Source: an uncultured virus (IMG/VR IMGVR_UViG_3300035396_000150) (Duplodnaviria; Heunggongvirae; Uroviricota; Caudoviricetes; Crassvirales). Taken from it: a DNA stretch of 20,000 nt. The translations under genes and the position numbers were made by a program. The notes under the pieces were generated by a model that was given only the letters and a program-made list of their open reading frames with translations, was not told the origin of the DNA and made no database searches. Below are positions 1,371-20,000 of this stretch, in pieces; the first letter of the stretch is position 1, and every line of letters starts with the position of its first letter. The stretch covers positions 52,959-72,958 of the IMG/VR virus record IMGVR_UViG_3300035396_000150; one strand, written 5' to 3'.

Positions 1371-1466
1371 TATTTTATTTATTTAATTATTAATACTTAT
1401 TTATTTTATTTAATTAATTACTATTAAAAAGAATTAATTAGTTTATATATTTCGTTTATTTACACT

Positions 1467-1500
1467 GCTAAGTTACAATTTTTTTTTGGAATAAAAAAAT
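1467..1500 (-). promoter_or_regulatory. Candidate Bacteroidota-type primary-sigma promoter for the leftward genes
   Basis: Minus strand reads GTAACTTAGC at 1476-1467, i.e. TAnnTTAG, a one-base variant of the TAnnTTTG -7 element. A T-run lies ~20 nt upstream and the site is ~100 nt before the ATG at 1370. Confidence 0.45.
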
Positions 1501-1936
1501 GACAAAAAGTCAAAAACATAGTATCAGCTCGAATGGTATAATATATAAAATTCAAGATTTCATAAATAAGTAATTTTAATATAGTATATTAAATACATAT
1601 ATAAAGTAATATCCAATAGAATAACATAAGTAGTTCAAGTACTGTAAAGTGATTGGCATTAAAGCTCACTGTGTATATGAATAGATTTGGAAATCAAAAT
1701 CGACTTGTATTATATATAAGATGGATTTAATCTATATATAAAGATAGAACAAGTACTATATACTATATATAACAAATTTAATGTAATAGAAATTCATATA
1801 GTATTTCAAGTATATAAAATTGTTGATGATGTAAAAGATGGTACACATATACTATATACTATATACAATATGTGCAGTACAGGCAACTACTATATAACCT
1901 ATTCTATATATAAGCATTATGGAATAGATATATCTA

Positions 1937-2109
1937 ATTGAGAGTTCCAGAGAAAGATGAAGTTATTCACCGAACTTGTTCGTTAAAGCATTTAAGTAAT
2001 AGAGAAAGAATTATAAACTAAGCTATACAGTACAGTATGTAAGTATATAGAATACAGTATTGAATTAGGTATATAATTCGGGGCTTCTTCTTTCTCTGGA
2101 AATCTCAAT
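1937..2109. repeat. 26-bp imperfect inverted repeat
   Basis: ATTGAGAGTTCCAGAGAAAGATGAAG (1937-1962) versus the reverse complement of 2084-2109, ATTGAGATTTCCAGAGAAAGAAGAAG: 24/26 identical. Confidence 0.85.
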
Positions 2110-2564
2110 CAAGTAAAATAGGTTCTATAAGTTGTACTAAATAAGTTGTATATAATTGGGCTTAAGATGCTCAACCTCGTGCTCAACCCTTATATATAGT
2201 ACTTAAATAAACTATATATAATATATAGTTTATATTTATATATAATAAGGTACTTATATTATATATAGTAAATTGGTTTACTTATCAATTCTTTACTACT
2301 TTACTATATACCAATTTACTACATATTAAATTATATTAGGTTGGTACTATTATATAATATATAGTATTAGTTAATTATGTTTTGTTTTATATATTGTAAG
2401 GTGGATACTATATACTATATTAATATATAGATATTATATTAGAATTTTTTATATAAAATTTTATTTAGTGGATAGATTATAAAATATATAGGTTGGTATT
2501 TGATATTGATGTATAGTATATGATATTGATTGATATAGTAAAATTTTTTTATAATATAAAATTT

Positions 2565-2678
2565 AGTTAATGAAAATGTAGGATAGTTATGTACTATATA
2601 GTATATATAGGTATAGTATAGTAATTAATAATTTTTTATTATGGAATTTTTTTTATAAGTTAATGAAAATATAGGATA
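2565..2678 (+). repeat. 21-bp direct repeat
   Basis: AGTTAATGAAAATGTAGGATA (2565-2585) and AGTTAATGAAAATATAGGATA (2658-2678): 20/21 identical, each preceded by AATTTTTTT(T)ATAA. Confidence 0.8.
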
Positions 2679-2785
2679 TCTATGTTGGTACTGAATACCT
2701 ATGGGGGTGACCCATACTATAATTTGCGAGCGAAAGCCCGTACGGGTAACATAAGTTTCCGTAACCATGTAAATATAAAATACAC

Positions 2786-3205
2786 ATGGCAAATACAAAT
2801 GAAAGAATTTTATCAGTAACTACTTCTACATTTAACACAGAAGAAAGTTACGTAATTACTGATTTAGGTAAATTTACTTGCCCTTCCGAGAAATTATCAG
2901 ACAGTCTTCGTCAGGCAGTCGATAATAAAATGGAGCCTTTGTGCTCTATAAGACGAACAGTACGTCAGATTGGTGACCCTTACAAGGACGCACAAGGACG
3001 TGACCGTAAAGTAGGATACAATGAACTTGGTGTAGAACTTGGTGCTATATCAGGGGAACAGGTAACGATAAATGCAGTAATTCCGATTAAGTCGGAAGTC
3101 GAAAAGAAACTTGATGAAAAAGACCTTGTTGTTGAAAGAGCTGTAAAGCTCATGCAAGCAACAGGCATCACGTTCGAAGCAGCACTTGCTATATACTCTG
3201 CATAA
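2786..3205 (+). CDS. Hypothetical protein, first gene of the rightward arm
   Basis: 139-aa ORF, more GC-rich than its flanks, A-rich leader, followed by a strong hairpin. Confidence 0.85.
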   Translation: MANTNERILSVTTSTFNTEESYVITDLGKFTCPSEKLSDSLRQAVDNKMEPLCSIRRTVRQIGDPYKDAQGRDRKVGYNELGVELGAISGEQVTINAVIPIKSEVEKKLDEKDLVVERAVKLMQATGITFEAALAIYSA

Positions 3206-3211
3206 AAGAAT

Positions 3212-3248
3212 ACAACCATATGCCTTCGGGTGTATGGTTGTTATGTTT
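3212..3248 (+). terminator. Stable hairpin, terminator or processing signal
   Basis: ACAACCATATGCC-TTCG-GGTGTATGGTTGT: 13-bp stem with a C(UUCG)G loop; weak U-tract. Confidence 0.7.
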
Positions 3249-3319
3249 GCCTATTTATAATTAAAATAGGATATACTATACATCTAACATAGTGTATAAT
3301 GAATAGTAAATATATGTAT

Positions 3320-3791
3320 GGCATCTGTTAGCCATTGCAGTAATGCAGAAGTAACTTGGTCCACTATGACCACACAAAGGCAAGGAAGTTGCTTGTAATC
3401 CTATCGGGAATGTGTGATATGTGGTAGATAGGCAGTATTACGGAACTAAGGTATGCATAGACTTTCCAACTATGTTTTACTATCCGTAACGTTTCAAATC
3501 AGTGTAATGAACTGATACGTTTTTATAAGTTCTGTGGCTCATAACCACACGTTGAAAGATTAGCAAGTCAAAGCTAATTACGTTTGGGCAGTTGACCAGC
3601 ACACATACCTATAAGTAGGGATACTATGTGTGCTGAAATAAGGTATATGATTATATATAATGCTTGTAAATTCCGTTGATACGGTATTCATACAAGTATG
3701 CTATTACAGGCATTATATATGATTATGAATAAGCACCAATACATTAAATAACACATAAGTAGTTAATTTGATTGTTGGTGCTTTATTTTTT
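3320..3791 (+). ncRNA. Putative multi-hairpin structured ncRNA, unclassified
   Basis: ORF-free run of stems: AAGTAACTT/AAGTTGCTT, TTACGGA/TCCGTAA, ATCAGT/ACTGAT, ATTAGC/GCTAAT, CAGCACACATA/TATGTGTGCTG, ATATATAATGC/GCATTATATAT, ending in a terminator. Confidence 0.5.
3731..3791 (+). terminator. Intrinsic terminator
   Basis: AAGCACCAATA (3731-3741) pairs with TGTTGGTGCTT (3773-3783); followed by a T-run. Confidence 0.65.
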
Positions 3792-4106
3792 ATATATAGT
3801 ATTACATATGTGTTATCGTATGTATATACAATATAATAAAGAACAAGATTGATGTAATATAATATGTGTGGGATTACTTATTGAGTGTCTGTGTGTATGT
3901 GTATTGCATAATATAATAGATTAAATTGAATTTATTGATGTGTGTGTCGAAGTGGCACTATACCAACAAACCACATATCAAGCCAACCACCAACAATAAA
4001 TTAGTAACAAACTTGACAAATAATCTCATTTTAAATAATAGATAAGACATTACTATCTATTACTTTATCATGTAGGAAATTTAGTAAAGTTAAATAACAC
4101 AGTAAA

Positions 4107-4343
4107 ATGGAAGAATCCCTGATCTTATTTGATGGTGCAGGTTTCGGAAGATTCGAAAACGGCATTTTCTGGGACAGTGAGAACTGTGCCAGAGGAAGAG
4201 CAAAAGATAAGATATTCATCAATATTATTGAGGAATACTTAAAATTGGATGCTCAAATAGAATTATCCATGAACCCTTTACATGTAGAAGTAGATGTAAA
4301 AGGGACGCCATTCTTCCTTTCAATGGTAGAATGGTTTGATTAA
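4107..4343 (+). CDS. Hypothetical protein
   Basis: 78-aa ORF with an A-rich leader and protein-like composition. Confidence 0.7.
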   Translation: MEESLILFDGAGFGRFENGIFWDSENCARGRAKDKIFINIIEEYLKLDAQIELSMNPLHVEVDVKGTPFFLSMVEWFD

Positions 4344-4578
4344 AAGAATAAATAAGATGTATCACTATCTTCCCTAAGACTAACATAGAAATATGTCCTT
4401 AGGTTTCAATATTAACTATACTTTGTTAAATTACCTGAAAGTTGAATGCATAAGAGCTATGCACAGGAGTAATTTACGTGATAGAGTATATATTATAAAC
4501 AATCTAAATTAAGATTGTACTTAGTAATAAGTTTATGATAGTAAATAAGTACAATATTAATACTAAACCTATATAGAT

Positions 4579-4725
4579 ATGTGTGACGATGCAGATGATT
4601 TTGTATGGTATTATTGTCCTATGTGTGGATCTTCAACAGATACATACAGTAAGTATTATTGTTCCTGTTATGATATAGACAGTAACAATGATACAGATGA
4701 TAAAGACCTTGACCAACAAGGCTAA
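4579..4725 (+). CDS. Small acidic Cys-rich protein (48 aa), possible zinc ribbon
   Basis: Below the ORF-track cutoff. MCDDADDFVWYYCPMCGSSTDTYSKYYCSCYDIDSNNDTDDKDLDQQG; CPxCG...CxC motif. Confidence 0.6.
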   Translation: MCDDADDFVWYYCPMCGSSTDTYSKYYCSCYDIDSNNDTDDKDLDQQG

Positions 4726-4949
4726 AACTCGATAAGTTGAGTAGATAGATACAACCTATCTTAAAATAAAGTAATTAGGTAAAACATACGTGACTAATAC
4801 TACGAGTCAAAAGGTAGTTAATGGTACGTCCGATTCAGCGTATGTTTTATTGGTTGAGAGTGATAGCTTAAACCCTATCTAAGTCCCCTAAGTTAAATAA
4901 CAAAACTACATTAGTAGTCTTAGGGTACTTTTATATTATTAAAAACCTA

Positions 4950-5280
4950 TACCATAGTTAGTACATCGCCTCGTTACTAGTGTGGCTTTGTTATTACTAT
5001 GAAGCAGTATAAATACAGATAGGTGTCTACCAATTGGTTTATTCTGTGTATTACAACAGAAAGGATTAGCTGTTTACCTGAATAGCTAATATCGTTAAAC
5101 TCGATTCGGAAACATATAAAAGTATGTAAGGTAATCCAATCCCTTGAAATATAGGGGTTGGATTTTAAAGTACTAAGAATAGAGTTATTATATGAATTCA
5201 ACATGAGTGATTCCGATACAAAAGTAGCAAGGTTGAAACATACTATTTAGCATAGGAATAGCTTTATTCTTTTTTTTTTT
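4950..5280 (+). ncRNA. Putative structured RNA ending in a terminator-like stem
   Basis: Stems ATTAGCTGTT/AATAGCTAAT, AATCCAATCCCT (5133-5144)/AGGGGTTGGATT (5153-5164) and a 15-bp stem 5175-5189/5257-5271 followed by a long T-run. Confidence 0.45.
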
Positions 5281-5288
5281 AACAATAC

Positions 5289-5669
5289 AAAACAAACTCT
5301 TTTTCAATTCAAATAAATACTACCTAAAAATAGTGCAGCTGCAATAAAGCAGAGGATAAATAGTATTTAAAGTAATTTACAACTAAATTTTGGTTAGTAA
5401 TCTAAATGTTGTAGTATAATGTAATTACACTCGGTGTTAGCATTACACTTAGAGCTAACCAAAACTACTAAGGTAGTTGTTATTTGAATTAAAGGTAATA
5501 ATAGAACGTACTTTAATGAATGTTTACATATAAAGTTATTCCTTTATAGAGTGTAAATAAGAGATTACTATATAACGAAGTATAAGGGAGAATAGTACTT
5601 ATACAAGAAATAGCTATTCTTGAATCTTCTAATATTATTATCCCACCACTTAGTGGAAGAGTTTGTTTT
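5289..5669 (+). ncRNA. Putative ~380-nt structured RNA with a closing stem and pseudoknot
   Basis: AAAACAAACTCTT (5289-5301)/AAGAGTTTGTTTT (5657-5669); AATTCAAATAA (5306-5316)/TTATTTGAATT (5480-5490); ACTACCT/AGGTAGT; TTTTGGTTAG (5388-5397)/CTAACCAAAA (5455-5464). Confidence 0.55.
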
Positions 5670-5705
5670 TTAATATAAAAGTATTAACAATCTAAATAAA
5701 AAGAA

Positions 5706-9085: not shown

Positions 9086-9355
9086 TAGAATTTGGTAGGT
9101 AAACCCCTCCTTGAATGGAGATAATAATACCTTTATAGTAAATACCGACATGGTTTGTAGAAATACATTTGAGACTGGTTTAAAGTACTGGTGTAGCAGT
9201 CGTACTAATTACTATATAAAAATCACTGATATAGATTTCTAACCTATATCAAGAACTTATACAACTTCCTATGTACATGGTTGTTGGAATATCTTTTGGT
9301 CTCTTCTATTGCAGAATAAAGAGTTACGAGATTTAAATTAAGTAGGGAGTGTACG

Positions 9356-9653
9356 GCATGACTATTTCAGGATAGTGCTAATTTGATATACGTTGAAGTA
9401 TATTGCAGTAATTTGGACAGGGGTTCGATTCCCCTCACCTCCACATACAACTTCGCCGTTGTAAACAAGTTAGTAACTAAGCAATTAGTTAAAACCTTGC
9501 TAAGTTATAAGGGGGTGTCAGGCTTTCGACAGGTTATGATAGTAGTGTATGGAGTATATTAAAGCCTATAAATGGCAAAACAATTTCAATTTCAAATGCA
9601 CCTGTTAGACAGGCTGCATAAGACGTTATTTAGAGGAGTACGACAACTCCTCT
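9356..9653 (+). ncRNA. ssrA: Circularly permuted (two-piece) tmRNA gene; outer ends approximate
   Basis: The 3' tRNA-like half comes first: GGAC-AGGGG-TTCGATT-CCCCT-CACCTCC-A (9415-9443). The 5' half follows: GGGGGTG-TCAGGCTTTCGAC (9511-9530). The 7-bp acceptor stem has G3:U70 and A73. Helix 2 pairs across the halves. Resume context ATAAAT|GGC; tag frame 9574-9621 = GKTISISNAPVRQAA-stop. Confidence 0.93.
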
Positions 9654-9659
9654 TCTTTT
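9632..9659 (+). terminator. Terminator-like hairpin ending the tmRNA coding piece
   Basis: AGAGGAGT-ACGACA-ACTCCTCT followed by TCTTTT. Confidence 0.7.
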
Positions 9660-9684
9660 AAAATAATAACTAAAAATCTATAAT

Positions 9685-11687: not shown

Positions 11688-12413
11688 ATGAAAGAAATAG
11701 GTTACTCCGTTAAGGAGAGAATCAGTATCAAGGATACTGCTCTAATAGTAATGGTTATCATTATATTATTATTAGTTATCCGTTCATTCTTTACAGAAGA
11801 TAAGGTAATTAAAATAGAAGATAGCCTATCCGAAGAGGAGATTAATCAAATCTCACCGGAAAATGCACAAGAGCTCCTTAAAGAGGGAGTTAAAACGTAC
11901 ACCATTGCAGCTCAATTGTTAGCTACACATTGGAAAGTAATACATAAAAACAAACATGTATTCCCCAATGCAAGTGAAGAAGATATATTTGCAGCATTTG
12001 CAAGTATATTTATGTCAGAGAGCAAAGGTAAAAAGAACTTAGCAGGAACATCAATAAATTATATTAAAGGATATAATGGAATGGGTGTAAAATGTGGAAG
12101 TTCTTGGGAGAGTGAAGCCATCTATACTTCCTATTGGGAAGTAGTGAAAGGTAAAAGAGTGGAATACAGTAACACTGACGATAAAATCAATGCTTTCAGA
12201 AAGTATAACTCACTTGAAGAAGCAATAGATGATTGGTTTAAATTCATATCTAAACCAATCTATAAAAAAGCCCACAAAGCTAAATCAACAGAAGGTATCT
12301 TAAAATATTTAGTTGATAGTGGGTACTGCACTGACAAAAATGCAGCCAATAATTGGATTGCAATCTGCACAGACTATCCATTCAGAGAGATTTATTTATC
12401 TGCAAAGGAATAG
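11688..12413 (+). CDS. Membrane-anchored GH73 glucosaminidase-like peptidoglycan hydrolase
   Basis: N-terminal TM; SES (catalytic Glu), NGMGVK, FRKYNSLEEAIDD and GYCTD correspond to the GH73 LES / NxFGIK / FRxYxS / GYATD motifs. Confidence 0.85.
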   Translation: MKEIGYSVKERISIKDTALIVMVIIILLLVIRSFFTEDKVIKIEDSLSEEEINQISPENAQELLKEGVKTYTIAAQLLATHWKVIHKNKHVFPNASEEDIFAAFASIFMSESKGKKNLAGTSINYIKGYNGMGVKCGSSWESEAIYTSYWEVVKGKRVEYSNTDDKINAFRKYNSLEEAIDDWFKFISKPIYKKAHKAKSTEGILKYLVDSGYCTDKNAANNWIAICTDYPFREIYLSAKE

Positions 12414-12414
12414 T

Positions 12415-12501
12415 ATGGAAGCTGAACTATTCATTAGATTAGTATTGATATATCATATAATAGGAAGCTTATCAATACTAATCTATTTAGAAACCGACTA
12501 A
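12415..12501 (+). CDS. Very small hydrophobic protein (28 aa)
   Basis: MEAELFIRLVLIYHIIGSLSILIYLETD exactly fills the gap, 1 nt from each neighbour. Confidence 0.5.
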   Translation: MEAELFIRLVLIYHIIGSLSILIYLETD

Positions 12502-12502
12502 A

Positions 12503-12649
12503 ATGGAGCATGAAAAAAAGAAAGTATTAATTGGTTTTGGTAAGTATAAAGGCAAGTGTCTTGAAACTACTATCAAAACCGACCCTAATTGGATAAAGTG
12601 GGCAGTATCCATAGGTAAACTAATTCTGCCTAAGTGGTTAAAGCTATAA
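12503..12649 (+). CDS. Small FGKYKG-motif protein (ExoX C-terminal-like/DUF3820-like), 48 aa
   Basis: Below the ORF-track cutoff. MEHEKKKVLIGFGKYKGKCLETTIKTDPNWIKWAVSIGKLILPKWLKL; FGKYKG...DPxWxxW signature. Confidence 0.75.
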   Translation: MEHEKKKVLIGFGKYKGKCLETTIKTDPNWIKWAVSIGKLILPKWLKL

Positions 12650-13194
12650 GAAGTATTGTATTAGTTGCTTTATTTCTATTTATACATAAAGACTTATTGT
12701 CGCCTTGTATTTATATAGATAAAGAACTAATACGAGCTTCCTTATTAAACAAATCAAATGAACTACTACTTAATGACGTTATGGACTTCATAAAATTACA
12801 TGAAGGGTTTAGACATAAACCATATAACGACATTAACAATAATAGCACTATTGGTTATGGATTTGTAATTAAATACATACCAGCTCAATATAGAACATAT
12901 ATATCTATTGAACAGGCTGATTCTATATTAAGAAATATAATTCTCTATAATATGAAGAAAGTTAAACAAAGATATCCACATATAAACTATCATCAACAAC
13001 TCGCAATAGCACATCTTATATTTAGGAAAGGTATCACGTCTTTAATAAATCATAGATTAGATGAAATGCTAAAAAAGGATAGTGTAGATGATAGTACATG
13101 GATTTATTATAGTTCTTATGAAAGAGAACGAATAAAATTTAAAGAGAATACAGAGTATGAACTAACACTATATAAAAATGAGAACCCATATTAA
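12634..13194 (+). CDS. GH24 phage lysozyme (muramidase) with N-terminal hydrophobic segment
   Basis: IKLHEGFRHKPYNDINNNSTIGYG contains an intact E-x8-D-x5-T triad and TIGYG; GTG start. Confidence 0.85.
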   Translation: MVKAIRSIVLVALFLFIHKDLLSPCIYIDKELIRASLLNKSNELLLNDVMDFIKLHEGFRHKPYNDINNNSTIGYGFVIKYIPAQYRTYISIEQADSILRNIILYNMKKVKQRYPHINYHQQLAIAHLIFRKGITSLINHRLDEMLKKDSVDDSTWIYYSSYERERIKFKENTEYELTLYKNENPY

Positions 13195-14335
13195 GATTAA
13201 AGACAATTTAGTATTTTCATCTAATGATGATAAGACCAAGTTAGTAAGAAGCAGCGATAAGGAATTGAATTTATTTAAACTTGCCTTAAATGGAAAAGTA
13301 AGGCACTTTAAAATGAATTTAATACCAACAGGAATCCAGTATATGCACGGTTACTATAATGGTACTATGCAAACTGAAACTAAGAAACTAAATCCACGCT
13401 TATCAAGTAATACGTATTACTCTAAGTTAAAGGATTTAAGAAGTGAAGGATATAAAACCTTTACGGAATATCAAAGCAAGTTTACAGATTTAAAGAGAAT
13501 AGAAGATATTCCTTTATTTGTAATATATAACACTAATGTAGATTGGCAACCATTACCAATGTTAGCTAATGTTTACAAGGAGTCACTTGTTACATTTCCT
13601 GTAATAGCTCAACCAAAGTATGACGGAGTTCGTTGCTTAGGTTTGGATAGTAAATTACTTTCAAGAGGAGGTATATACTATATGCAACCACACTTAGAAA
13701 AGGAAGTAAGACGACTTACAGAGCTTTGCAATGGAGTTCCTGATGGTGAATTATACATACACGGAATGCCCCTATCAGAAATATCAGGTAAAGCTCGCAA
13801 GAGTATGCCAGATATGTTTGATGAGCAACTACTTGAATTTCATGTTTACGACTATATAGCTTCTGACAATGAAGCTCAGTGGTATAGAACAGATATTTTA
13901 AGAGCCGTTAAAGAAAAGCATGGACATGAATTTAAATATATAAAGTTCAGTCCTTACATAGTACTTAATAACGACGAAGAAGTAACCATATGTCATGACA
14001 GATGTGTAGCAGATGGATATGAAGGTTGCATGATAAGGGATATGAGATCACCTTATGCTATATCATTTAGAGTAAATAGCTTATTAAAGAAGAAAGCCTT
14101 TTTAGATGATAAATTTATACTCATTGATGTAAGCATGAACGGAGAAAAAGACTACAGAAGCTTAACAGGTACGTTACTAACCGATAGTAATAAACAGTTT
14201 AAAGCTAAATTCAAATGTAGTTTAGATGAAGCTGTTAATATATACAAGTCTCCTCCATTAGGAGAGTATGTAAATGTTAAATTCTTGAATTGGAGTACAA
14301 ATAAACTGCCTGAAAAGGCTCAAATTATATTATGA
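13178..14335 (+). CDS. lig: ATP-dependent DNA ligase
   Basis: Motifs QPKYDGVR (KxDG), LLSRGG, DGELY, FHVYD, EGCMIR and LLKKK, followed by an OB-like tail. Confidence 0.95.
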   Translation: MRTHIKIKDNLVFSSNDDKTKLVRSSDKELNLFKLALNGKVRHFKMNLIPTGIQYMHGYYNGTMQTETKKLNPRLSSNTYYSKLKDLRSEGYKTFTEYQSKFTDLKRIEDIPLFVIYNTNVDWQPLPMLANVYKESLVTFPVIAQPKYDGVRCLGLDSKLLSRGGIYYMQPHLEKEVRRLTELCNGVPDGELYIHGMPLSEISGKARKSMPDMFDEQLLEFHVYDYIASDNEAQWYRTDILRAVKEKHGHEFKYIKFSPYIVLNNDEEVTICHDRCVADGYEGCMIRDMRSPYAISFRVNSLLKKKAFLDDKFILIDVSMNGEKDYRSLTGTLLTDSNKQFKAKFKCSLDEAVNIYKSPPLGEYVNVKFLNWSTNKLPEKAQIIL

Positions 14336-17701: not shown

Positions 17702-18145
17702 ATGGCACATAATAAAGCAGTAACCAACAATAAAGCAAATCACCCAGCAGATAAATACAGAGCAGATGAAAAGCCGTATGACCCTATCGCTATAAATGAA
17801 ACTAATAAACTTGTAAAGAAACAAGTAGAATTAATATATAAAACAGTTAAGCCGGGAGTTGCTATAGTAAAACCTGTAATACTAACTAAATCAAATATAC
17901 TACTACCTGATGGAGTAGAGAATCCTAATGAAGAGCCTGTATTTGAAATAATGCTTGTAGGTAAAGTAAATCCTGATTACGACTTAGATGTTAAAGTAGG
18001 AGATAAAGTACTTATAACTGAAATCAATGGAGTGAATCATCAAAGAGCAACAAAAGCAACCACCTTAGACGGAGCTGATGTTGGGGGCTATTATCAAGTA
18101 GATACAAGAAACATATATGCTATTGTAGAGTATAACAGAATATGA
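17702..18145 (+). CDS. GroES/Cpn10-like co-chaperonin
   Basis: TKSNILLPD (mobile loop), EIMLVG, DVKVGDKVLI and NIYAIV match the Cpn10 pattern; N-terminal extension present. Confidence 0.75.
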   Translation: MAHNKAVTNNKANHPADKYRADEKPYDPIAINETNKLVKKQVELIYKTVKPGVAIVKPVILTKSNILLPDGVENPNEEPVFEIMLVGKVNPDYDLDVKVGDKVLITEINGVNHQRATKATTLDGADVGGYYQVDTRNIYAIVEYNRI

Positions 18146-20000
18146 TTTATTTAATAGGGTTAAAAGTTAATGGAATAGAAACCATATCTAAAGAAAGAGC
18201 ACTTCATAAAATATCTCAATATAAACTAATATGTGAGGATACAGAAACTAAGACTTTAGATTACCATGAAAAAAACCCTATTAAATTAGTACAAATAGGG
18301 ACAGAAGAAGACCAATTCGTATTTAGTCCTGAAGAGGCTAAATCATTAAAGCCTATATTAGAAGATAGAAATATAACTAAGATAGTAGTTAATGGTGTAT
18401 TTGAACGTAATATGCTTCGTTCATTAAGTATGCAGTTAAACTCCATGTTTGACTTATCACTTGCATATAAGGTATACAGACAAGGTAAAGAAGTAAGATA
18501 TGTAAAGACTAAATACGGAGAGTTCTTTATATACTCACTTGGAGGCATGATGAAGGAATTACTTAGTATAGATATAAATAAGGCAGAGCAGACCTCATTC
18601 CTACAAGATACCTCAACATACACACAAGACCAAATACGATATGCCGCTGATGATGTTAAGTTATTTAACTTATATCAAGTAATACTAAATAAACTAATAA
18701 AGAAAGAACTTATTACAGAAGATTATAGATTTGATAATACAGAAATACTTGTAAAAGAAGATAAATTCCGTAAAGCTATACTTGAATTCAAATATCAAGA
18801 GTACTTAGCTGATATGCTATATAATGGTATATATATAGATAGTGCGGATTGGCTTAAATTAGAAGAACTTAATAAAATAGAATCATATAAAAGACAAGAA
18901 GCTTTGAATGAACTAATAATAAAGAGTTCACCTAAATATAAGAATAACAGAAAGGCACCTATATCATATATTAAAGAAAAGACAATTGACTTATTTACAG
19001 GAGAAGAGATTAAGATAGATAATAAAGTACATGATAAGAGAAGAGTCAATTGGAAATCATCACAACAGGTTAAAGAAGTATTCAGAGAATTAAAAATAGC
19101 TATACCTAATGTAAAAGGTAAAGATACATTAGATATAAAAGAATTAAAGAAAGTAGCTAATGCACACCCTTTATTACCTGATTATATAAAATACAAAGAA
19201 CTATCCAAGCTGATAGATTCATACGGCTCTAAGATGTTAACAAACATCAATAAGAATACAGGTAGAATACACTTTCAAGTAGACCAATTGCTTGCAACAG
19301 GACGACTTGCACCATATAATCCTAATATGGCACAAATACCATCAAGTAAGGAATGGAGGAACTGCTTTAAAGCCCAAAGAGGTGTTATAGTAGGAGCTGA
19401 CTATTCTGCACAAGAGAGTAGAGTAATGGCATATAAGAGTAAAGATGATGTATTTATAGACTTTTTTGAGAATGGAGACGGGGATAGTCATAGTATGGTG
19501 GCTTCTAAGGTATATAGTACTAAAGAAAGACTTGAAATAACGATTACTAAGCTATCAATGGAAGTTAAATTTCCAGAGAAAGATGAAAGCATTGTCCGAA
19601 AATTGCTAAAAGAGTTATACCCTAATGCAAAACAAGTAATTAAAGAAGAAGGTAAACTAACTGCATACGGTAAGCTCGATATGTCTAATAAAGATGAAAA
19701 AGGAGAAGAGTGCCCACTAAGACAGAAGGGTAAGATTCTAAACTTCTTTATATCTTTTGGTGGCAGTTCATTCACACTATCTCAATCCCAGAATATAAGT
19801 ATGGAAGAAGCCAACGACCTGTTAAACGGTTTTTGGGGAGCATTTAAGAAATTAAAGCTATACTTTGATGCTGAGAAAGGGTTCGCATTAGCTAATGGCT
19901 ATAATATAATAAATCACATAACCAAAGGTAGACGTAGTTATCCGGAGCATAAGGAGATGAAGATATTACAGAATAAAGCAAGTGCCTTAATTAAAGAGAA
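18142..20000 (+). CDS. polA: Family A DNA polymerase with 3'-5' exonuclease domain (partial, runs off right edge)
   Basis: Missing from the ORF track because there is no stop in the window. Hand translation from ATG 18142 is open to the end: EDTET, YAADDV, NWKSSQQV, TGRIH, TGRL, motif A GADYSAQESRVMA, DSHS, motif B RQKGKILNFFISFGG. Confidence 0.95.
   Translation, partial: MIYLIGLKVNGIETISKERALHKISQYKLICEDTETKTLDYHEKNPIKLVQIGTEEDQFVFSPEEAKSLKPILEDRNITKIVVNGVFERNMLRSLSMQLNSMFDLSLAYKVYRQGKEVRYVKTKYGEFFIYSLGGMMKELLSIDINKAEQTSFLQDTSTYTQDQIRYAADDVKLFNLYQVILNKLIKKELITEDYRFDNTEILVKEDKFRKAILEFKYQEYLADMLYNGIYIDSADWLKLEELNKIESYKRQEALNELIIKSSPKYKNNRKAPISYIKEKTIDLFTGEEIKIDNKVHDKRRVNWKSSQQVKEVFRELKIAIPNVKGKDTLDIKELKKVANAHPLLPDYIKYKELSKLIDSYGSKMLTNINKNTGRIHFQVDQLLATGRLAPYNPNMAQIPSSKEWRNCFKAQRGVIVGADYSAQESRVMAYKSKDDVFIDFFENGDGDSHSMVASKVYSTKERLEITITKLSMEVKFPEKDESIVRKLLKELYPNAKQVIKEEGKLTAYGKLDMSNKDEKGEECPLRQKGKILNFFISFGGSSFTLSQSQNISMEEANDLLNGFWGAFKKLKLYFDAEKGFALANGYNIINHITKGRRSYPEHKEMKILQNKASALIKE

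Follow-up and report, generated by a model that had tools for sequence, protein, structure and literature searches.

The window analysed here, 20,000 nucleotides of phage DNA, holds a sequence resembling the 3' end of a tmRNA upstream of one resembling its 5' end, and from this order a sequence-only reading had proposed a two-piece tmRNA produced by an independent permutation in a phage lineage. The questions raised by the locus are whether the gene is real, from which tmRNA it descends and what such an RNA could do for its carrier. ARAGORN and the Rfam model RF04321 (tmRNA_permuted), the searches suggested by that reading, both called a permuted tmRNA at 9382-9659, and the order and positions described for its two halves all match the sequence. 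ARAGORN predicted the tag GKTISISNAPVRQAA followed by a stop codon, and RF04321 matched 9386-9621 with 69.3 bits against a cut-off of 47 (E 9.5e-12); this score is weak proof of the order, because nine one-piece proteobacterial genes (L448-L456) also exceeded the cut-off, with 50-65 bits. An unconstrained fold of 9375-9660 gave the full two-piece shape (z -3.49; 0 of 200 shuffles folded equally well), including helices 2a-2c across the halves, with all three segments that had been named for helix 2, the T-arm, the acceptor stem, two spacer hairpins, a terminator and a hairpin spanning the last part of the tag. An identical gene was found in a complete record of 95,999 nt with terminal repeats (L015/G428), which may not be independent, and a contig from another study (run X3) bridged 9396-9553 with zero differences. 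Because the identical gene in the complete record, the X3 contig and 92 homologues all show the same order, the assembly artefact that had been raised as a possible source of that order was excluded, and the permuted tmRNA gene in the window was confirmed as real.

The gene lies on the + strand and begins with an acceptor piece, for which 9382-9443 is the minimum extent according to ARAGORN, Rfam, the fold and covariation in the family. This piece contains the 3' strands of helix 2 (2c at 9382-9391, 2b at 9398-9406 and 2a at 9408-9415; ARAGORN, Rfam and fold) and, in the sequence, GGAC at 9415-9418, the T-arm at 9419-9435, the acceptor 3' strand at 9436-9442 and the discriminator A9443. An intervening sequence of 67 nt (9444-9510), folded into hairpins at 9446-9463 and 9473-9508, separates it from the start of the coding piece (9511-9563; sequence, Rfam and fold), which comprises the acceptor 5' strand with G3 (9511-9517), the D-loop (9518-9529) and the 5' strands of helix 2 (2a at 9530-9537, 2b at 9542-9550 and 2c at 9554-9563; Rfam and fold). 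The 7-bp acceptor stem with G3:U70, A73 and an unencoded CCA that had been read from the letters was borne out: seven of seven positions pair, G3:U70 among them, A73 is present, and CAT directly 3' of A9443 shows that CCA is not encoded. In the fold, a 10-nt linker (9564-9573) occupies the usual position of pseudoknot 1 (PK1) between helix 2c and the resume codon, and its first three bases are predicted to be able to pair with that codon. The tag reading frame of GKTISISNAPVRQAA and its stop codon (9574-9621) was identified by ARAGORN, the fold and the codon-position pattern over 91 homologues, and the fold places a helix-5-like hairpin inside it (9596-9619); the frame has a resume context and a non-polar C-terminal end. 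Neither this frame nor the missing PK1, nor a second motif of the 5'-end kind (9345-9362, described below), had been picked up by the sequence-only reading. Space for pseudoknots 2-4 is absent from the coding piece, the 3' end of which is likely formed by 9632-9659, an intrinsic-terminator-like hairpin (9632-9653) with a T-rich tail detected by a terminator scan and the fold; the scan found one terminator against a shuffle mean of 0.4, which is weak taken alone. A sigma-70 promoter scan returned three sites, with 3.2 expected by chance.

Five viral-contig pattern scans (69, at least 118, 86, 44 and 43 loci), BLAST matches and one species-genome scan yielded at least 150 overlapping loci and, from these, at least 92 unique genes of the same compact type, all with the permuted order. 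The 92 genes came from 83 viral contigs, five named phage records, three genome contigs and the window; the set was adjusted by a hand rule (one row moved out, eight in), 29 of 30 alphaproteobacterial (alpha) controls were used, and Maribacter phage Panino (PP540027) is a member outside these counts. The resume codon lies 56-72 nt from the 5' end in compact genes, a range that is partly circular since the class was defined by a distance of at most 75 nt, compared with 80-86 nt in alpha genes, a median of 85 nt in the beta type, 72 nt in cyanobacterial (cyano) genes and 77-102 nt in Bacteroidota. Between helix 2c and the resume codon the 92 genes have 0-18 nt (median about 11, and 10 in the window), which leaves no room for PK1, whereas the gap is 26-38 nt in alpha and 27-61 nt in beta-type genes. 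Twelve members folded with a pseudoknot-blind method showed one or a few hairpins after the stop codon. Spacer length varies from 16 to 242 nt and spacer sequence is not conserved. Tags in the family begin with Gly, partly because of the search patterns; Gly starts 11 of the 14 tags in genes recovered independently of those patterns; Ala-start tags are absent from the 92 compact genes and present in 37 of 39 beta-type and 29 of 29 alpha genes, and CCA is encoded in 7/92 compact, 41/44 beta-type and 25/29 alpha genes. ARAGORN detected 79 of the 92, and its tag equalled the pattern-based reading in 63.

Compact genes occur in crAss-like phages of the gut, in aquatic phages, in two cultured phages and in the prophage of an isolate; complete genomes of 124 and 158 kb and phage MA9V-3 gave no match to the crAss capsid query. 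At least 120 rows of the species-genome scan, in which the pattern was dominated by one-piece genes, comprised 101 one-piece, three permuted and 16 unparsed genes. BLAST with two further family members found zero new carriers among named phages, and among 50,697 phage genomes no record matched more than 17% of the window's gene. Within the family, a 15-residue tag class, GK[VT][IV]x[ML][FN]xxxL[RK]x[VA]A, accounts for 25 of 91 tags, including that of the window (9574-9621); it is unlike host tags except at the ends, and presumably resembles the ClpX-docking tails of SspB adaptors and cyanobacterial tags. Tags of 36-38 residues occur in a short-spacer subgroup (L106, L107, L114, L483, L528, L529, L621) and in the one-piece gene of phage phi14:2 (L632). 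In cr55_1 (L375, NC_055869; 141-900) an HNH endonuclease gene lies directly upstream of the tmRNA, the acceptor piece is without most of its T-arm, the coding piece is intact and the ARAGORN call is lost, while in a gut phage (L096) a Hatchet ribozyme and a RAGATH-9 RNA (141-272, 1126-1304) lie upstream of the compact tmRNA.

The alignment of homologues that had been suggested for a covariation analysis was built with 30 genes: 88.9% of cells were paired, 13 of 19 pairs showed two-sided changes, none of 500 shuffles scored as high and slid controls were 46-58% paired, with covariation counts that are inflated by relatedness and acceptor and T-stem pairing that is imposed by the search filter. 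The first helix 2a pair after GAC/GGAC, which the filter does not impose, was paired in 92 of 92 genes (A-U 63, U-A 22, G-C 5, G-U 2). Pieces from different genes paired at 0.58 against 0.75 for pieces of the same gene, the latter being better in 81 of 92. Besides the T-arm, RNAalifold on the 30 genes recovered only a portion of the acceptor stem, helix 2 being misaligned by gaps. At the last tag codon, entropy was 0.0, 0.31 and 1.84 bits at positions 1, 2 and 3 (91 genes), a pattern indicating selection on the tag frame to encode protein; the codon specifies Ala in 86 and Val in five of the 91 genes, three stop codons are in use, and the tag filter favoured such ends. A GCC just upstream of the resume codon that could pair with it occurs in 19 of 92 genes, including the window's (shuffle mean 2.5, maximum 9 in 1,000 shuffles); covariation is uninformative on this pairing because the resume codon is nearly invariant.

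The carrier genome (72,958 nt, 31.7% GC, 78% complete) gave no tRNA call and has the tmRNA as its single RNA gene. Protein and PHROG matches identified a crAss-type terminase, portal and major capsid protein, by which the genome is classed as crAss-like (Crassvirales); the capsid protein shares 31% identity with its counterpart in phi14:2, a crAss-like phage of Cellulophaga, and the terminase about 38% with those of gut crAss-like phages. The sequencing runs containing this DNA are labelled microbial mat. Downstream of the tmRNA, the intervals 11688-13194, 13178-14335 and 18142-19998 hold a pair of neighbouring endolysin-like genes together with genes for an ATP-dependent ligase and a DNA polymerase of family A, and 1371-5705 is a long ORF-poor stretch. 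The hosts named for the carrier's protein matches are most commonly Bacteroides, Flavobacterium and Cellulophaga, so its own host is probably a member of the Bacteroidota. The lack of smpB noted for the window extends to the whole carrier genome and to five of five other records tested, four of them with the compact tmRNA gene and among them the complete genome with the identical gene.

The named hosts of family carriers, Maribacter, Chryseobacterium and Zeaxanthinibacter (prophage), all belong to the Bacteroidota. Among 151 genomes from the phylum of Zeaxanthinibacter (G001), which we take to be Bacteroidota, 144 had a one-piece gene over the cut-off, in agreement with the earlier statement that tmRNA in the host phylum is typically one-piece. 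A permuted gene was found in one of the 151 (G001), inside a crAss-like prophage, and this host chromosome retains its own one-piece tmRNA gene. The prophage, at about 915000-990000 of a 1.6-Mb contig (G001:C1) of the isolate Zeaxanthinibacter sp. PT1, carries capsid, ligase and polymerase A homologues, a 5,143-aa protein, the compact tmRNA and two tRNAs; the literature found on Zeaxanthinibacter and phage contained nothing on it.

Two earlier claims gave way when known phage genes were compared. A one-piece form as the general rule in phages finds no support in the available text of PMC9004378, where 53 of 133 phage tmRNA structures are two-piece. The suggestion that the gene is uncatalogued fell as well, since Table S1 of that paper lists 13 of 14 crAssphages, host unknown, as 'Permuted', without comment in the available part of its text, and RefSeq annotates sister genes as SsrA. 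Four of these listed crAssphages were checked and are of the compact type; Cellulophaga phage phi4:1, also 'Permuted' in the table, matched neither RF04321 nor the T-arm pattern. Members annotated as SsrA or tmRNA are cr50_1, cr7_1, cr124_1 and cr125_1 (Suoliviridae; NC_055868, NC_055895, NC_055899, NC_055900), Chryseobacterium phage MA9V-3 (PV245944) and Maribacter phage Panino (PP540027), the tag of which reads GKVMNVSFAPTVRQFA by eye. They share with the window's gene the order, the compact build (resume codon at about 59-64 nt), Gly- or Asp-start tags and an unencoded CCA, but their records are labelled only tmRNA or SsrA and match at most 17% of it. The parts available of the MA9V-3, Panino and Calle papers mention the tmRNA and not the permutation, and the ten phage ssrA carriers in the available text of PMC4131195 are all Bacillus or Mycobacterium phages. 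No paper on the compact form was among the matches listed in a search outside which subscription journals largely fell. Phage two-piece tmRNAs and permuted crAssphage genes are thus already known, while the pseudoknot-free build and the probable separate origin appear undescribed, and the window's gene adds a new, distant member to a variant that is catalogued but apparently undescribed.

The two-piece tmRNAs of alpha- (RF01849) and betaproteobacteria (RF01850) and marine cyanobacteria (RF01851), with their phage copies (Melnitz, HTVC008M, S-CAM1), are likewise permuted, with the spacer in the acceptor loop, pieces held together by the acceptor stem and helix 2, G3:U70 and a non-polar tag end. 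They typically keep PK1 and PK2, as far as PMC3985003 is available, whereas the compact family is without PK1; their tags start with Ala-Asn and CCA is mostly encoded in alpha and beta genes, neither of which holds for compact genes. With the one-piece tmRNAs of Bacteroidota (RF00023) and of phages phi14:2 and Calle_1, the family has in common Gly-start tags, the resume context, TTTGAC, the helix 2a junction and a mostly unencoded CCA, but the one-piece genes have the standard order, 350-400 nt in hosts, a resume codon at 77-102 nt and room for PK1. Pseudoknot loss is shared with the mitochondrial and phage DS6A TLD-only tmRNAs, which are without a tag frame, whereas compact genes keep a conserved one.

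Position profiles placed 81 of the 92 compact genes with one-piece Bacteroidota, a count that was 84 of 92 when only sites left free by the search patterns were used and 12 of 14 for genes recovered independently of the Gly pattern; cyano genes had too few rows for a profile, the beta type was represented by phage genes, and a leave-one-out control misplaced 9 of 68 Bacteroidota genes on the free sites. TTTGAC was found in 88/92 compact, 21/68 Bacteroidota and 0/172 other genes, and the GACAGC..GTTT junction in 27/92, 19/68 and 0/172, respectively. The promoter element TAnnTTTG lies 30-41 nt before GGAC in 9 of 90 compact genes against 0 of 43 beta-type genes; no exact copy adjoins the window's gene. 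The phages phi14:2 and Calle_1 of Bacteroidota have one-piece Gly-start tmRNAs, a form that is plausible as the ancestral state. For the independent permutation that had been proposed, the profile tests are therefore favourable, but the trees reject no origin and the window's own copy is ambiguous: it has TTCGAC, carries neither Bacteroidota-only marker, scores -32.1 with the beta type and -32.6 with Bacteroidota on free sites, and has cyano-type genes as its neighbours in the tree (SH-aLRT 87, a weak grouping). AU tests rejected none of six groupings (p 0.46-0.76), including a single origin of all permuted genes, in a tree of 100 of about 330 genes and 103 columns with 46 of 97 branches open. 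On these sequence comparisons, we consider it rather probable that the permutation in the compact family was independent of the alpha, beta and cyanobacterial ones.

The trees are also compatible with descent from a phage tmRNA of the beta or cyano type that had been permuted beforehand; such a gene would have kept its function while passing from phage to phage, losing PK1 and acquiring Bacteroidota identity elements by drift. The window's nearest rows are cyano- and beta-type, 14 of the 92 compact genes have a beta-type nearest neighbour, helix 2b/2c junction words are similar in beta-type phage genes, and such genes do reach phages of other hosts (Stenotrophomonas phage Moby, by eye). This descent is nevertheless unlikely in our view: the cut-offs of RF01849, RF01850 and RF01851 were passed by none of eight compact genes tested and by nine of nine controls, the window itself having no match to these models above the 41.3 bits of RF00023; the counts of encoded CCA and Ala-start tags given above separate the compact from the beta and alpha genes; and the compact family shares the Bacteroidota-only markers.

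Other permuted genes were noted in the course of these comparisons. Moby (L631, 580-860) has an unannotated two-piece tmRNA, beta-type by eye, and a gammaproteobacterial host. A beta-type permuted tmRNA (L457) on an 11-kb contig (G155:C15) of a genome labelled Fischerella is probably misbinned. An 'alpha-type' identity of other phage two-piece genes was discarded, as Rfam assigned two of those tested to the beta type and one to the cyano type. A cyano-type phage gene (L034) has an 81-nt spacer (2407-2487) that folds like a whole tRNA cloverleaf; one such tRNA-like spacer is reported elsewhere (PMC11915505).

A degenerate motif resembling a tmRNA 5' end was located upstream of the gene (9345-9362, + strand), 70 nt before GGAC, with six of seven pairs to the acceptor strand and G3 kept. 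RF00023 aligned 9345-9446 as a closed TLD at its 41.3 bits, below the cut-off. Only two such sites exist in the 73-kb genome, the other being the true 5' end; the motif, defined after the fact, occurred in 6 of 20,000 shuffles, and similar ones lie within 200 nt upstream of 3 of the 92 family genes at unrelated distances. It is possibly a duplication relic, an alternative TLD-only fold or a product of chance.

The interpretation we favour, with moderate confidence, is that this crAss-like phage encodes a working two-piece tmRNA of minimal build, which most likely arose from a one-piece Bacteroidota tmRNA by a separate permutation. A single precursor with acceptor piece, spacer, coding piece and terminator would be transcribed and fold like a pre-tRNA; host RNase P would cleave at 9511, and host 3' processing of the tRNA kind and the CCA-adding enzyme would complete the end at 9443, removing the spacer (9444-9510). 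The resulting pair of RNAs, about 65 and 150 nt long and joined by acceptor-stem pairing and some 27 bp of helix 2, would be charged by host AlaRS through G3:U70 and, with host SmpB and EF-Tu, enter ribosomes stalled on stop-less mRNA. Translation would resume at 9574, adding (A)GKTISISNAPVRQAA, and the product would be degraded through its non-polar C-terminus, all four pseudoknots having presumably been lost and the 10-nt linker standing in place of PK1. The phage may gain extra or replacement rescue capacity once infection has filled the cell with damaged mRNA or eliminated the tmRNA of the host. From processing to tagging, these steps are modelled on the two-piece tmRNA of Caulobacter, for which the accessible text of PMC3985003 describes a single transcript that is cut by RNase P, processed at the 3' side, completed with CCA and alanylated, after which SmpB-dependent rescue, tagging and proteolysis follow. 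A tmRNA without PK1 is plausible because in E. coli PK1 can be replaced by a hairpin or a single strand, partly with loss of activity, according to the available portions of PMC4236655 and PMC13692277.

The same missing PK1 could instead mark a decoy, an RNA that is charged and binds SmpB, tags poorly and weakens host trans-translation or draws it away, a role that has been proposed for the TLD-only gene of phage DS6A. PK1 is reported to aid loading of the reading frame (PMC13692277, available text), TLD-only RNA inhibits tmRNA (PMC4131195 and PMC11915505, in the parts available), and the window's upstream motif could close a TLD-only fold; but E. coli tmRNA with single-stranded RNA for PK1 still tags (PMC4236655, available text), and a tag frame conserved as protein code in 91 genes, with Ala or Val ends, is hard to explain in this way, which makes the decoy improbable. 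A silent leftover or integration-site fragment of host ssrA is the least credible of the readings and very improbable: although phages do acquire ssrA fragments (PMC9004378, in the text available) and the family includes a gene close to an integrase (L027) and another inside a prophage, both halves, the tag and the terminator are intact, compensatory changes connect the pieces, and both hosts checked retain their own one-piece gene elsewhere. On the broadest form of the favoured interpretation, a phage-borne, independently permuted, Bacteroidota-derived two-piece tmRNA that encodes a tag without any pseudoknot, with 9345-9362 as a relic that may record the tandem duplication behind the permutation or allow a TLD-only switch, we are evenly divided.

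In the available parts of the literature, two-piece tmRNA is attributed to three bacterial lineages and some mitochondria, and PK1 or a stand-in structure is considered important for tag-frame loading. The window's gene is itself one more member of a family already flagged by annotation tools. If its origin was independent, the permutation arose again, inside phages of one-piece hosts. With cultured phages and an isolate prophage among the carriers, why phages carry tmRNA becomes testable, and a diverse natural family that has a tag and only about 11 nt at the PK1 site offers a test of the minimal needs of trans-translation.
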